A program made the position numbers and the translations under genes. A model generated the notes under the pieces. It saw only the letters and a program-made list of their open reading frames with translations. It had not been told where the DNA came from and searched no databases. Below, one piece after another: positions 33,404 through 42,640 of a stretch of 53,756 bases of DNA. Numbering within the stretch: the stretch's first letter is position 1; every line of letters starts with the position of its first letter. Origin of the DNA: Symploca sp. SIO2C1 (GTDB taxonomy: Bacteria; Cyanobacteriota; Cyanobacteriia; Cyanobacteriales; Coleofasciculaceae); the NCBI GenBank assembly GCA_010692635.1, contig JAAHGL010000014.1, positions 1 to 53,756 on the forward strand, in the 5' to 3' direction.

Positions 33404-34705
33404 TTACTCAATTCTAGCTGGGGCATTGGCTTTGAGATAAGCCCCTTGCCCTAAGTGCCGTAGATTTGGATAGCAGCTCCGGTAATGTTCCTCGCTAACG
33501 AACAACCACAGGATGCGAGTGCGACGATTCTGGGGGGGTTGGGGGCAAGGGGCATAACCATCAGTGTAAATGATCAGGCCATCGTAATCGCGGTGTTCAT
33601 CAATATAGGTCACGACTGGCGCAAAATTCGTACCGCCACGTCCCGTTAGTTGGACTTCATGTTTTGCTCGACGGAAGATCATGACGTCGGTGGTAATCTG
33701 AGCATCAAATTGAATGACATCAATCGCAGGTACGCCGTAGTTGAAAAAGCGGTTAATCATCGAAAATCCTTGTTGGAGCTGTTCTGTGCCCATAGAGCCG
33801 CTGACATCGATCGCAAACAATAATCGTGTTGTAAAGTCGCGACGACTTCCCATATAGGTGAACCCATACCGGCGATTAGGCTTCATGCGCGTTAGCCGTC
33901 GCTGTTGGCTGAGGATGGAGGTGCGAAACTTGCGCAAGACAGCCCGATAGTCGAGTTTGGGGTGAAGATTCGCCAGGATATGTTCCCGCAATTTGCCCCC
34001 AATATTGCCCCAGCTGTCATTGGCTTGGGTCGTTTTTACCAACTCATCCAGGCGATCGCTCAACAATTCATCCTGATCCCACTGGTCCGTATTTTCGACC
34101 CCACTCAGGCTTGGGTCAGTATAGACTAAAAGTAGATCGCTGGGGAGATCGCCTGGGGTTGAAATCTCTTCAGATTCTGGTTCAGAAGATTCAGATTCAG
34201 AAGCTGCCGACGCGGGTGCGGTCTCAGCTGTACCCATACCCGCTGTCGTCGCTCCGGATGCTGTCCCTTCTGAGCTGAAGGTTGGTGCGGTGGGTGGTTG
34301 TTGGTCAAGCAGTTGGTGGTAGTAGAACTCGAAGAACTGTTTATCATAGCTGCGATCGCCAAACACATCCCGCGCGCGCGGAAACGGCAGTTCGGTTTGC
34401 AAATATTCCTGTAGCGTCAAATTGCTGGCAGCATAGCTGATGGCTGAATGCGCTTGGCGGCGACTGTAGGGATGTTTGAGGAGAATTCGCAGCGCCTCGA
34501 AACGTAATGTTGCTTCCAAGTGGCGATCGCTCAGCTGCTCGATAAAACCGGGATTGTACTCGATGCAACCCCGCTGAACGCGAATGGTTTGGATGCGGGG
34601 TTCGGGGACTAAAGCGTGACTGGTCCAGGTTGCTAACAACAATGGCTCCACGAGCAGCCACTTTTCAATAATCCGAGCAATGCGCTGACGAGCAAATTTC
34701 CTCAT
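33404..34705 (-). CDS. VWA-domain protein of the DUF2201-like type (putative metallopeptidase-like N-domain + VWA with MIDAS), normally the partner of a MoxR AAA ATPase.
   Basis: MIDAS motif LLFAIDVSGSMG with downstream T and D. N-terminal RIARIIEKWLLVEPLL... helical domain. Its first ~18 codons are duplicated at 40657-40709, coupled to the AAA gene there. Confidence 0.7.
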   Translation of the reverse strand: MRKFARQRIARIIEKWLLVEPLLLATWTSHALVPEPRIQTIRVQRGCIEYNPGFIEQLSDRHLEATLRFEALRILLKHPYSRRQAHSAISYAASNLTLQEYLQTELPFPRARDVFGDRSYDKQFFEFYYHQLLDQQPPTAPTFSSEGTASGATTAGMGTAETAPASAASESESSEPESEEISTPGDLPSDLLLVYTDPSLSGVENTDQWDQDELLSDRLDELVKTTQANDSWGNIGGKLREHILANLHPKLDYRAVLRKFRTSILSQQRRLTRMKPNRRYGFTYMGSRRDFTTRLLFAIDVSGSMGTEQLQQGFSMINRFFNYGVPAIDVIQFDAQITTDVMIFRRAKHEVQLTGRGGTNFAPVVTYIDEHRDYDGLIIYTDGYAPCPQPPQNRRTRILWLFVSEEHYRSCYPNLRHLGQGAYLKANAPARIE

Positions 34706-34843
34706 AGCCAAGGTTCAGGTCGAAGGTCAAACTAATAAATAACAAGTAAGGCGATCTCTGAGAAAGAAAATACTAATGCATCGCGTAGGTCAATCGGCGC
34801 AACAATTTCAATTTGTTCTTTTGGCAAGCCGACTACGGATTTC

Positions 34844-35218
34844 CTAAGCCGTTGGCACGGTGGTATCGACCCACTCAAGAAAAGTTACGGGCAGCCCATC
34901 GGGAGCCCGAATCTGAAAGAGCCGGGCTCCCCAAGAAGTAGACTGTGGCTCAGGTGTATCGATGTTGAGGTTGTGCCGCGTAGCCTCAATGTCATCAACC
35001 TCGATCGCCAGGTGGCAACGGTCGTTGGGAGAGCCAAGATTGAGTGGAGGTCGTTTGCGGCTATTATCTAGGATTTCAAGCCGCATGCCACCCAGGTCGA
35101 ACCTCACCCCACGCGCATTCGGACGATCCCACTGTTCCACCACCGGGAAACCGAGCTGATCGCCATAGAAGGTGATGACAGCATCGAACTGCTCGGTAGC
35201 GATCGCAACGTAACTCAT
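34844..35218 (-). CDS. VOC/glyoxalase-family protein.
   Basis: 124 aa. Paired beta-alpha-beta-beta-beta modules with HLAIEVDDIEAT. ATGA overlap with the upstream LLM gene. Confidence 0.65.
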   Translation of the reverse strand: MSYVAIATEQFDAVITFYGDQLGFPVVEQWDRPNARGVRFDLGGMRLEILDNSRKRPPLNLGSPNDRCHLAIEVDDIEATRHNLNIDTPEPQSTSWGARLFQIRAPDGLPVTFLEWVDTTVPTA

Positions 35219-36333
35219 CGTGCAGCCACGGAGGTCTCCGTAGCCTCCGCTCTCAGTCTCTTTCGGACACGAGGCGCTACGTCTTCGAGCAAAAGGCGAA
35301 GGCTACGCTCCCAGGGCTCGATCTCCTTAGTAGCGTCATAGGAGACAATTGTGAGATAACCAAAACCACCTGTTTGGTCCTGAAGTGATTCAATGCGCTC
35401 GGCTACAGTGTCTGGCGAGCCTACGAGCCAAAGATTGTCGGCAAGATAATCAAGATCGATTGCCGAATCCGGCATATCTGGATCGGTTTTAAGGATGGGT
35501 CCCAGGCCGAGGCCAAGGTAGATTGGCAGCAAAAATTCGCGCCAGCACCTACCCATTGCGCCACCGATCGCAAGTTCCCGTGCTTCTGTATCAGTGGGTG
35601 CTACATAAACATCACGGACAATCCGCCAGTTATCTCGATTGGGCTGTCGGTTGGCTCGCTTGGCACCCTCCACAACCGCGTCCCAATGTTGGGAGGTTAT
35701 GGACAAATCGGGATCCACACTCAGACTGACTGGCAAATACCCCTTCTCACCAGCCAGCTTGTGATTATCAGACCCCGCAGTCAGACCAGCGATAGCGATC
35801 GGCGGATGTGGGGTCTGGTAGGGGGTGAGGTGATAGCCAAGCCCTGGTAGTGTGCTTTCAGGCTTTCCCATCGACCAAAATTCACCCGTGAATCTGCTGG
35901 GACCTTCGGTCCAGAGCCCGGTCATCATCTCCAGTGATTCAAAGGTCATGCGACGATTACGCCCTCCAGCAGCCTTGATGTCGAATAGGTCGCGATCAGA
36001 AGGAAGAGCGCTGATGCCAACACCAAGCTGGTAGCGACCACCCGCCATATGGTCGAGATAGGCAACTCGGTGAGCAAGTTCGACTGGATTGTGATAGGGG
36101 AGTAGATGACCTAGAGGACCGAGGCGAATGTTTTGAGTGCGCAATAGCCCTTGCGCAATCAGCAGATCTGGCGCCGGACAGGGCTCCCATTGAGCAGTAA
36201 AGTGCTCTCCAATCCATGCTTCGTCAAAACCAATCGCGTCCAAGCGTTCGAGTTCTGCTAAATCTGCTTTTTGTCCCTCACGGATTGCAATTTCCGGTGG
36301 GTGGGATGGCATCAACAAGCTACCAAATTTCAT
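35215..36333 (-). CDS. LLM-class (luciferase-like) flavin-dependent oxidoreductase.
   Basis: MKFGSLLMP...DAIGFDEAWIGEHF...GRYQLGVGIS is the typical LLM TIM-barrel N-terminus. 372 aa. Confidence 0.75.
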   Translation of the reverse strand: MKFGSLLMPSHPPEIAIREGQKADLAELERLDAIGFDEAWIGEHFTAQWEPCPAPDLLIAQGLLRTQNIRLGPLGHLLPYHNPVELAHRVAYLDHMAGGRYQLGVGISALPSDRDLFDIKAAGGRNRRMTFESLEMMTGLWTEGPSRFTGEFWSMGKPESTLPGLGYHLTPYQTPHPPIAIAGLTAGSDNHKLAGEKGYLPVSLSVDPDLSITSQHWDAVVEGAKRANRQPNRDNWRIVRDVYVAPTDTEARELAIGGAMGRCWREFLLPIYLGLGLGPILKTDPDMPDSAIDLDYLADNLWLVGSPDTVAERIESLQDQTGGFGYLTIVSYDATKEIEPWERSLRLLLEDVAPRVRKRLRAEATETSVAAR

Positions 36334-36610
36334 GTCAACTTAATTATTGCTAAATGACGTCTAAACTACCGTTTTCTGCATATGATGTGGTATCAGATTA
36401 GGTTATTCAGGAAATATTATGCTAAATTATCACAAACACAACCCAAAATGCTACTCCACAATGATGCATAACCATTGAGCTCTCATTGAGAAAGAAAACA
36501 AATTATAAAAAAACTTAAAGCTATAGAGGCTAAATCTGTGGTTGATTGATTTGTTATGCTACTGCTCAAGCCAATCGAACGAATTCATAAAGAATTCTCT
36601 GGCATTATTA

Positions 36611-41794: not shown

Positions 41795-41811
41795 GGGGGT
41801 GTGGGGAGGGT

Positions 41812-41846
41812 GGGGAGATGGGGAGATGGGGAGATGGGGAGAAGTG
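41812..41846. repeat. GGGGAGAT octamer tandem repeat (~4 units) at the 5' end of the MoxR gene.
   Basis: tggggagatggggagatggggagatggggagaag. Confidence 0.6.
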
Positions 41847-41908
41847 ATGATTTGAGAGGATACAAAGCTCGAAAATTCCACCCAAAATTTCGCTCACCCG
41901 GGTACTGG

Positions 41909-42640
41909 TTATAAGTCTTGATGGCGAACCCAATCGGAACGGCGATAGCCTCGCTTCAGATGGGTTTTAAAGCGAACGCCACTGTTGTAAGTCTCTCGGA
42001 GAGCTTGAATCGCTGTGCGCAATTTGGGTAACACCTCTTTGAACTGGTTAAAGGGAATCATTATGGCAAAGTAGTCATTGTCAGATAGGCGAATGATCAA
42101 TTTGAGTTTAACGCTATCCACCTCGGTGGCAAAGTCAAATTGATCTTCTTTTGCAATTTTGCGCACCTGAGCCAAGATTGCCTGGAGTTTCAGATCTCGC
42201 TGTTTCTGGCGCTTGGCTGCCAAGGCTTTTTGCTTGTCAATTCGCTGCAGAAACCCTTGCGCTACGGTGACGAGCTCGCCAATATCCGAAATGGGTGCTT
42301 CCGATCGCTGACCCCCTAAGTTTACCCATAGTTGTTGATCAGAGTCTCTCAGCAAATGTAAATGGGTGTGATGGTGATACCAGCGCTCCCGGGATTCCTC
42401 TAACAAGACACAACAACATAAGGTGTCGGATGGCGGCGAGTCGGATGAGCCTGACACAGAGTGGGAACGATAGCGATATTGGTAGCAGTCATTATTTCGT
42501 TCGGCTCCAGGTAGGGACTCAACCCGTGCCAGGAAGTCCTCAGTCAGTTCCTGGGCTTGTTCCGAGGAAACTGTGAGGGGATTATTACCTGAAATATTGT
42601 CCCGCAGGAGCTTTTGTAAACTACGCCAAGTGATGGACAT
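41909..42640 (-). CDS. Hypothetical protein (243 aa), first gene of the MoxR operon.
   Basis: Same strand, 27-bp gap to the MoxR gene. His/Cys patch CCCVLLEESRERWYHHHTHLHLL. No known domain recognised. Confidence 0.5.
   Translation of the reverse strand: MSITWRSLQKLLRDNISGNNPLTVSSEQAQELTEDFLARVESLPGAERNNDCYQYRYRSHSVSGSSDSPPSDTLCCCVLLEESRERWYHHHTHLHLLRDSDQQLWVNLGGQRSEAPISDIGELVTVAQGFLQRIDKQKALAAKRQKQRDLKLQAILAQVRKIAKEDQFDFATEVDSVKLKLIIRLSDNDYFAIMIPFNQFKEVLPKLRTAIQALRETYNSGVRFKTHLKRGYRRSDWVRHQDL

Follow-up and report, generated by a model that had tools for sequence, protein, structure and literature searches.

MoxR-type ATPases are paired with VWA proteins in two-component systems such as RavA-ViaA, CbbQ-CbbO and NorQ-NorD, and vWA-MoxR pairs also occur as conflict systems. 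Here we analyse a MoxR-VWA locus whose two genes have come apart. It lies in a 53,756-nucleotide (nt) stretch, the window, from Symploca sp. SIO2C1 (assembly GCA_010692635.1, contig JAAHGL010000014.1, positions 1 to 53,756), a Symploca/Caldora-type filamentous cyanobacterium and not one of the Nostocales as a first, sequence-only description (the original prediction) had assumed. As in RavA-ViaA-type pairs, an AAA_5 MoxR is encoded with a VWA partner, here in an operon with a conserved third gene, hyp243. Unlike in those pairs, the VWA partner is of the DUF2201_N/DUF2201 type, and the partners lie 3–6 kb apart in one clade.

Gene ends cut off from their genes by new DNA have a precedent. The C-terminal displacement of Rhs and contact-dependent inhibition (CDI) proteins and the orphan immunity arrays of the Vibrio cholerae type VI secretion system (T6SS) were attributed to homology-facilitated illegitimate recombination, in which a homologous anchor and an illegitimate join leave displaced gene-end remnants (PMC5361080). 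The present locus resembles these arrays in that a conserved gene serves as the homologous anchor, a truncated orphan end stands beside new material, no integrase is present, and repeated events build arrays (three junction copies in one relative, L004). It differs from them in that the displaced end is, in the window, the 5' one, a mirror image; that the cargo consists of miscellaneous cassettes and debris and not of a matched effector/immunity module; and that the genes encode a MoxR ATPase and a VWA protein, with a mechanism that we infer. Integrase islands of the tRNA/tmRNA type also have flanking direct repeats, keep their target intact by means of a replacement end and can pile up partial target copies in tandem; unlike them, the locus has no integrase, variable breakpoints, no coherent element and a protein-gene junction as its target, and the insertion is fixed across a clade while cargo turns over inside. 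With flexible genomic islets it shares conserved flanks around variable content, toxin-antitoxin and nuclease genes, insertion sequence (IS) debris and a compositional mosaic, whereas it sits inside an otherwise tight operon and is bounded by remnants of that operon's own junction. The locus is a new instance of an already known type of genome scar. We favour, with moderate confidence, an ancient junction-duplicating recombination in the ancestor of the clade, after which the gap became a hypervariable islet with cargo turnover.

A VWA stub behind MoxR and two junction alleles

On the minus strand of the window, open reading frame (ORF) calls and Pfam give the order hyp243, MoxR (AAA_5) and VWA (DUF2201_N + DUF2201) (Table 1). 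The members of the operon type are all there, namely the ATPase, the VWA gene and the conserved upstream hyp243, and their adjacency is not, since exactly 6000 nt separate the MoxR stop from the ATG of the intact VWA gene. None of the three matched PADLOC or NCBIfam, and hyp243 also had no Pfam match. The VWA, LLM and kinase proteins of the window had no exact counterpart in the records consulted. The MoxR stop at 40706 overlaps an ATG at 40709 (gtATGAaa, minus strand), which opens MKISTLQRIARIIEKWLL followed by unrelated sequence (TECLVLG) and a stop codon. The VWA-like part comprises only the first 53 nt, or 18 codons; no further VWA or MoxR fragment was found when the entire window was searched. 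Between this stub and the intact gene, 38 of 40 nt are identical, and this pair is the top direct-repeat family within 32–43.5 kb. The main observations of the original prediction therefore stand: the 40-bp repeats with two differences, the stop/ATG overlap that opens a VWA N-terminus, and the topology as a whole, in which a truncated VWA start fused to MoxR is followed by mosaic DNA and then by a complete VWA gene with different first six codons. It is the arrangement of a displacement scar, a truncated gene end beside new DNA with an intact copy kept.

The two VWA starts are unevenly alike. Over codons 1–6 only 10 of 18 nt match, whereas the next 35 nt match at 34 positions; the lone mismatch is private to the window's intact VWA gene, because the related locus L001 carries the base of the stub. 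With eight mismatches in codons 1–6, stub and resident gene are different alleles.

We collected 45 related loci by scanning one genome per species and 9 more from a metagenome scan. Across them, hyp243, MoxR and VWA form a unit that is conserved among filamentous and marine cyanobacteria. Neighbour-joining trees of the three genes are congruent and group the window with L001, L046, L050, L004 and L002. In all five of these closest relatives (MoxR 91–97% identical in amino acids (aa)) the genes are split and the cargo differs: MoxR and VWA are separated by 6.0 kb in the window and by 3.7, 3.2 and 3.8 kb in L001, L046 and L050, respectively; in L004 the gap exceeds 2.5 kb, up to the contig end, and L002 has no VWA gene within 10 kb of MoxR. 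Synonymous divergence (dS) within the clade is 0.2–0.6, and the ratio of nonsynonymous to synonymous divergence (dN/dS) is 0.08–0.11 for MoxR, 0.11–0.18 for VWA and 0.17–0.31 for hyp243; MoxR and VWA are clearly both under purifying selection. Thus, the uncoupling is old and tolerated. MoxR and VWA probably still work together as separately expressed genes on the same strand. A simple scan found no strong sigma-70-like promoter just upstream of VWA, a result that is uninformative for cyanobacteria.

Stubs that overlap the MoxR stop by ATGA also occur in L050 (MRLSTRQRIARIIEKW), L004 (MRTSTRQRIARIVE) and L046 (MKISTRQCIARV). They begin with MKISTL in the window, MKISTR in L046, MRLSTR in L050 and MRTSTR in L004, a variation that parallels the MoxR tree and speaks for one origin. 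Their ends differ: the VWA sequence breaks off at +53 nt (codon 18) in the window, +48 (codon 16) in L050, +42 (codon 14) in L004 and +36 (codon 12) in L046, and the DNA adjoining each of the four stubs is unrelated to that at the others. No VWA stub follows MoxR in L001 or L002.

The intact VWA genes of the clade start with M[RK][KT]F[AT]R (type 2) and share a leader of about 25–45 nt with TTACTTG-type repeats. Type 2 start and heptamer-repeat leader are also found in the sister loci L003 and L005, where MoxR and VWA are adjacent, and an intact type 1 start (MKISTRQ), the type seen in the stub, is found in L006. Thus, two junction alleles appear to have been combined in the split clade.

Is the 40-nt repeat the core of an attachment site? 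A 27-mer derived from the repeat, with five degenerate positions, hits the VWA start of 27 loci from many genera and nothing in viral contigs. No part of the VWA gene is more conserved between genera at the nucleotide level than these 36–40 nt of identity, so the near-identity of stub and gene needs no recombination core. Judged by its sequence, the repeat, within which gene conversion or homologous crossover may have taken place, is a scar made of conserved VWA coding sequence rather than a working att site.

MoxR and VWA are adjacent, 11–231 bp apart, in L003, L005, L006, L007, L016 and L040; two of these six have a TGAnATG arrangement and others short tandem repeats between the genes. The contiguous loci that the original prediction hoped to find thus exist, but among sister lineages only, with a different intergenic region and without a stub, so that they do not form a precise empty site; all five closest relatives are split. 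In the metagenome scan, a contiguous MoxR-VWA junction of the MKIST type had no match. About 25 loci (L018 at 1496–2116, L008, L011–L015, L017, L019–L036, L047, L048, L051 and L052) carry between MoxR and VWA a gene for a 206-aa putative restriction endonuclease of the Uma2 family, which matches the PADLOC candidate defence gene PDC-S03 (E=4.5e-92) and is absent from the window. MoxR-VWA adjacency is thus common and not obligatory, because six loci are adjacent while about 25 hold Uma2 in between; the pair is physically split in the window, as had been noted, but calling it an obligate pair overstated the case, all the more as both genes remain under purifying selection. The Uma2 protein of the junction might belong to the system as its fourth component, or it might be a selfish nuclease that became fixed there. 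We also considered variable MoxR-VWA spacing as the sign of a general insertion hot spot and rejected it, as the spacing mostly reflects this one conserved gene. In L021, L025, L029 and L035 the Uma2 protein is fused to a 260-aa N-terminal extension. The 3.7-kb gap of L020 holds, after Uma2, a 319-aa RRXRR + HNH protein (13466–14425; an IscB-like domain pair) and a TnpB fragment.

Cargo of the gap and scars at related loci

The 6-kb interval is an accretion zone, not one element. Its cargo is a patchwork of a PEP-CTERM gene, fragments of IS66, PIN, HNH and DUF4336 genes, a kinase cassette, a carbonic-anhydrase-like gene and a piece of an LLM/VOC-riboflavin kinase (RFK) operon. GC content is 0.48–0.53 in the hyp243-MoxR-VWA operon, 0.55 in the VOC/LLM part, 0.37 in the kinase gene and 0.33–0.36 in the AT-rich spacer, which confirms the predicted mosaic with its AT-rich kinase gene. 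The predicted inventory (VOC, LLM, secreted protein, kinase, IS66, PEP-CTERM gene and repeat) was recovered as well, with two corrections: the supposed miniature inverted-repeat element (MITE) holds a DUF4336 3' fragment, and the VOC gene is a decayed fusion. Neither Pfam on the interval ORFs nor Pfam on six-frame translations of the spacers (E<=1) revealed a recombinase or integrase domain, in line with the integrase-free interval described before. The spacer scan cannot confirm the IS66 and HNH fragments, which DNA and protein comparison had shown, because it found nothing; the IS66 piece is too short for Pfam. The only transposase traces are the IS66 fragment and, outside the interval, an IS200 TnpA fragment: the 53-aa ORF just downstream of VWA (33205–33366, minus strand) is the C-terminal part of an IS200-like Y1 transposase (Pfam Y1_Tnp, E=1.7e-7). 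Against plasmids, the interval gave only short gene-fragment matches. Rfam and tRNA scans found no Rfam family and no tRNA at the islet borders; a tRNA-Arg gene (TCT; 29026–29100, plus strand) lies 4.3 kb beyond VWA, unconnected with the repeat or the borders.

Comparison with relatives brings out the turnover. The window has kinase, PIN fragment, HNH fragment and carbonic-anhydrase-like gene, in this order, and L001 has antitoxin, HNH, carbonic-anhydrase-like gene, kinase, antitoxin and PIN; kinase and carbonic-anhydrase-like modules thus stand in opposite order. Between the kinase cassettes (L001 13205–13699) dS is 0.04 and dN/dS 0.58, against a dS of 0.15–0.33 in the flanking core genes, which suggests a recent lateral exchange of this cassette alone. 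The DUF642/PEP-CTERM gene is absent from the gaps of L001, L046 and L050. PIN and HNH domains were confirmed in the L001 genes; the HNH fragment of the window has itself no Pfam match. An intact DUF4336 gene is found in the gap of L046 and beside MoxR in L017. The secreted protein scores 125 bits against NF047901 (metal-independent carbonic anhydrase), below the cut-off of 350. Its gene lies within the gap in the window, L001 and L050 and downstream of VWA in L008, L012, L030 and L036; it is a recurrent neighbour of the operon, after VWA in Hormoscilla/Oscillatoria loci and between MoxR and VWA in the split clade. The LLM/VOC block (36342–34774) is about 80% identical to an operon of LLM, VOC-riboflavin kinase and flavoprotein genes that is sited elsewhere in other cyanobacteria, and the homology begins 9 nt upstream of the LLM ATG. 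The fusion of VOC and (CTP-dependent) riboflavin kinase is intact in other cyanobacteria, at 253–258 aa, and lacks about 86 codons in the window. A 27-nt palindromic repeat occurs in two copies where none is expected by chance. These features do not make an integron: there is no integrase, the two-copy hairpin repeat does not bound each gene, and no Rfam family exceeded its threshold. One more ORF (39045–39152, minus strand; MTIAPMPIKQYVKQQNNGYWLEGTRISLDS) begins in a way that we take to resemble a DUF433-type antitoxin; it has no Pfam match, and no comparison supports the likeness.

Gene-end stubs are not confined to the window. L001 has a 5'-truncated MoxR 3' fragment about 180 nt upstream of VWA, and this stub matches the resident MoxR end of the window at 69 of 70 positions, whereas L001's own resident end is 90% identical to that of the window. 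The simplest reading is that the MoxR end of L001 was displaced by an incoming allele. A crossover point in L001 could not be placed, as its identity to the window falls gradually from 98% to 90% along hyp243-MoxR, with no sharp boundary. L004 (7241–9796, a Prochloron-associated contig) has three MoxR/VWA junction copies: (i) the 14-codon VWA stub; (ii) a MoxR stub reaching from −90 up to the stop; and (iii) a MoxR stub from −42 with eight VWA codons. They are interleaved with a low-molecular-weight (LMW) phosphatase gene, an antitoxin-like ORF and a Uma2 gene, and one cassette is flanked by two of them, which make up a perfect direct repeat of 42 nt.

At the 3' end of VWA, four Okeania-type loci carry HicA/HicB genes (L013 13309–13807, L019 13072–13597, L014 8180–10073 and L020 16071–17912; the insertions are hicAB or hicB+TnpB, with a TnpB gene in L014 and L020). 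Behind the hic insertion lies a 278-nt VWA 3' stub whose boundaries are the same in each of the four genomes and which is 87–90% identical to the resident copy. Similar VWA 3' stubs of 312–395 nt occur in L015, L008 and L036. L045 (10001–10880) and L054 (170–1049) are decayed operon copies in which MoxR residues 309–362 are joined directly to VWA residues 195–428, and L043 and L053 hold an isolated MoxR fragment of residues 267–342.

In the spacer between hyp243 and MoxR (41795–41908), a proline-rich repeat, PHLPISPSPHPPHTP, appears if MoxR is read from the GTG at 41881. This stretch is missing or unalignable in relatives, where homology starts at the ATG at 41794.

Table 1. Positions of the operon genes, repeats, stub and cargo in the window.
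Feature	Position	Strand	Basis or remark
hyp243, conserved first operon gene	41909-42640	-	next gene upstream of MoxR in almost all related loci
MoxR-type AAA+ ATPase (AAA_5)	40706-41794	-	Pfam; longest ORF from GTG 41881, homology from ATG 41794
VWA 5' stub, type 1 start MKISTLQRIARIIEKWL-	40657-40709	-	open frame continues to 40632 in unrelated sequence
40-nt direct repeat, left copy	40657-40696	.	repeat search
27-nt palindromic repeat (GTTGGGT...ACC[G/C]AAC), copy 2	40594-40620	.	36 nt beyond stub
DUF642 / choice-of-anchor C protein with PEP-CTERM tail (cargo)	39726-40496	-	domain profiles
IS66-family transposase gene fragment	about 39560-39704	.	74-79% nt identity to annotated IS66 transposases
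AAA_33 / zeta-toxin-like P-loop kinase cassette	38511-39014	-	Pfam; 96.9% nt identity to L001
64-nt fragment	38438-38501	-	matches L001 14172-14235, 5' part of the L001 PIN-toxin gene
ORF whose C-terminus is a 3' remnant of an HNH endonuclease gene	38103-38288	-	gene intact in L001
Secreted 177-aa protein, carbonic-anhydrase-like	37356-37889	-	sub-threshold NF047901 match
55-nt block	37050-37104	.	98% identical to L001 sequence directly after MoxR stop
27-nt palindromic repeat, copy 1	37058-37084	.	inside the 55-nt block
DUF4336 / MBL-fold gene, 3' fragment, in the AT-rich 'MITE' region	36532-36748	-	comparison with relatives
LLM-class flavin oxidoreductase	35215-36333	-	domain profiles
Decayed VOC-riboflavin-kinase fusion	34774-35218	-	VOC ORF 34844-35218, RFK C-terminal remnant 34774-34836
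Conserved leader of intact VWA (TTACTTG-type heptamer repeats + gaccttcgacctgaaccttggct)	34706-34749	-	right-hand limit of variable region
40-nt direct repeat, right copy, codons 5-18 of intact VWA	34653-34692	.	repeat search
Intact VWA gene (DUF2201_N + DUF2201), type 2 start MRKFARQRIARIIEKWLL	33404-34705	-	Pfam

How the junction may have been split

What is the history of the gap? We propose that DNA with a second, diverged MoxR-3'/VWA-5' junction recombined into the tight hyp243-MoxR-VWA operon of the clade ancestor, whose genes would have overlapped by ATGA. One end would have recombined homologously via the strongly conserved genes and the other would have been joined illegitimately, either by homology-facilitated illegitimate recombination ("displacement") or by single-crossover insertion of a circle with a junction copy; the two are topologically the same. 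The old VWA start, at least 53 nt of it, would have stayed fused to MoxR, and a complete VWA gene with its own leader would have come to lie further downstream. The gap may then have turned into a hypervariable islet in which toxin-antitoxin, HNH/Uma2, kinase and carbonic-anhydrase-like cassettes, IS fragments and chunks of operons were gained, shuffled, exchanged and lost. At its left edge, turnover would nibble the dispensable stub from the free end while selection guards MoxR only, which would explain stub lengths of 18, 16, 14, 12 and 0 codons. The recombination mechanism, and which allele was resident and which incoming, we infer from the present arrangement.

Several points weigh against this history. 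No donor sequence was found for any of the joints, and all relatives are metagenome-assembled genomes (MAGs) or metagenome contigs. With stubs of 36–53 nt, one ancestral event followed by erosion is not rigorously separable from several independent events at nearly the same place. The stubs of the window and L050 are identical over codons 7–16 and nearly identical to the intact copies; this exceeds the conservation expected under neutral decay at a dS of about 0.4 and could mean gene conversion, selection on a small ORF or a real recombination core. Finally, the MoxR stubs of L001 (14560) and L004 (8325) have their first nucleotide at the same position, 90 nt ahead of the stop and at a 10-bp palindrome, CCAAATTTGG, while their upstream flanks are unrelated; this hints at a site preference that a purely illegitimate process does not predict.

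The main rival, possible although we hold it to be unlikely, is an in-situ duplication, either of the junction or, in tandem, of the whole operon. Reciprocal decay would have followed and left hyp243-MoxR in copy 1 and VWA in copy 2, with later insertions and no foreign DNA at the first step. Such a duplication accounts both for the VWA 5' stub that follows MoxR and for the MoxR 3' stubs that precede VWA, and the congruent trees of hyp243, MoxR and VWA agree with it. So does the carbonic-anhydrase-like gene, which is usually found after VWA but in the window, L001 and L050 lies between the stubs, the order expected if two successive operons decayed. What it fails to predict is that the VWA starts differ at 8 of 18 nt over which three lineages have identical intact copies. 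Because this is followed by one difference in 35 nt, either the copies were distinct alleles to begin with or divergence of the stub was strangely uneven; against the duplicative rearrangement of the original prediction, taken as a simple in-situ duplication, this pattern points to two alleles. Moreover, one copy has the ATGA overlap and the other the heptamer-repeat leader of the sister clade, and neither a VWA 3' stub nor a hyp243 stub is detectable in the gap.

Less likely still is a decayed site-specific integrative element that used the VWA 5' end as attB, carried a look-alike start in attP and lost its integrase. Its topology would fit Campbell-type integration, the VWA starts differ upstream of the common 35 nt as attL/attR hybrids would, the junction copies of L004 are interleaved with cassettes, and the MoxR stubs of L001 and L004 have an identical 5' boundary. 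Yet no integrase or recognisable remnant is left in the ORFs or six-frame spacers, searches of viral contigs and plasmids returned no copy of site or cargo, the left breakpoint is different in each of four genomes, and the common stretch is simply the best-conserved part of VWA. The closest relatives are all occupied, each with different cargo, and that cargo is debris of unrelated origins. A site-specific island as first proposed, and likewise any recent event, is at odds with five closest relatives that are also split, with stub ends that differ and with cargo made of broken ordinary genes. The interpretation put forward in the original prediction is, as a whole, partly supported.

More speculatively, and at low probability, the MoxR-3'/VWA-5' junction might be a preferred landing site of selfish nuclease and toxin-antitoxin cassettes in filamentous marine cyanobacteria, reached without an integrase and in a homing-like manner. 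The HNH or Uma2 endonuclease of a cassette would cut a naive allele at a fixed site, for example the palindrome that lies 90 nt ahead of the MoxR stop. One-ended repair with a cassette-bearing allele as template would then copy the cassette in, and the cut-off gene end would stay behind as a stub. Hints in this direction come from Uma2 in the junction of about 25 genomes, the shared MoxR-stub boundary of L001 and L004, the 42-nt duplication of L004 and the stubs beside hicAB. If true, this would mean that arrays of cassettes separated by junction fragments can be built without an integrase.

It is very improbable that the 25-codon ORF after MoxR is a functional small gene or leader, translationally coupled to MoxR: an ATGA overlap and an open frame of 21–25 codons are kept in four lineages, and codons 7–16 are identical between the window and L050, but the C-terminal halves have neither sequence nor length in common, L001 and L002 have lost the ORF altogether, and short open frames are expected by chance. 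That a metagenome assembler joined two loci at the 40-mer is hardly credible even for a MAG contig such as the window, as independent assemblies of other samples have the same architecture (contigs of 126–196 kb included), an imperfect repeat with 38 of 40 matches is too short to mislead modern assemblers, and the flanks are colinear with L001.

Meaning for MoxR-VWA operons and cassette spread

The ancient split of the operon, as we favour it, bears first on the pair itself. Over a long span of evolution, a MoxR ATPase and its VWA partner can apparently remain functional although they are neither adjacent nor translationally coupled, which makes operon linkage a less strict guide to such pairs. 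The locus is also a worked example, in poorly studied marine cyanobacteria, of gene-end stubs that record past recombination at a hypervariable islet, and it illustrates that a perfect-looking "att repeat" can be merely the best-conserved piece of a coding sequence. Junction stubs among toxin-antitoxin and nuclease cassettes, together with a Uma2 gene fixed in the junction of most relatives, offer a modest lead on how cassettes may spread without an integrase.

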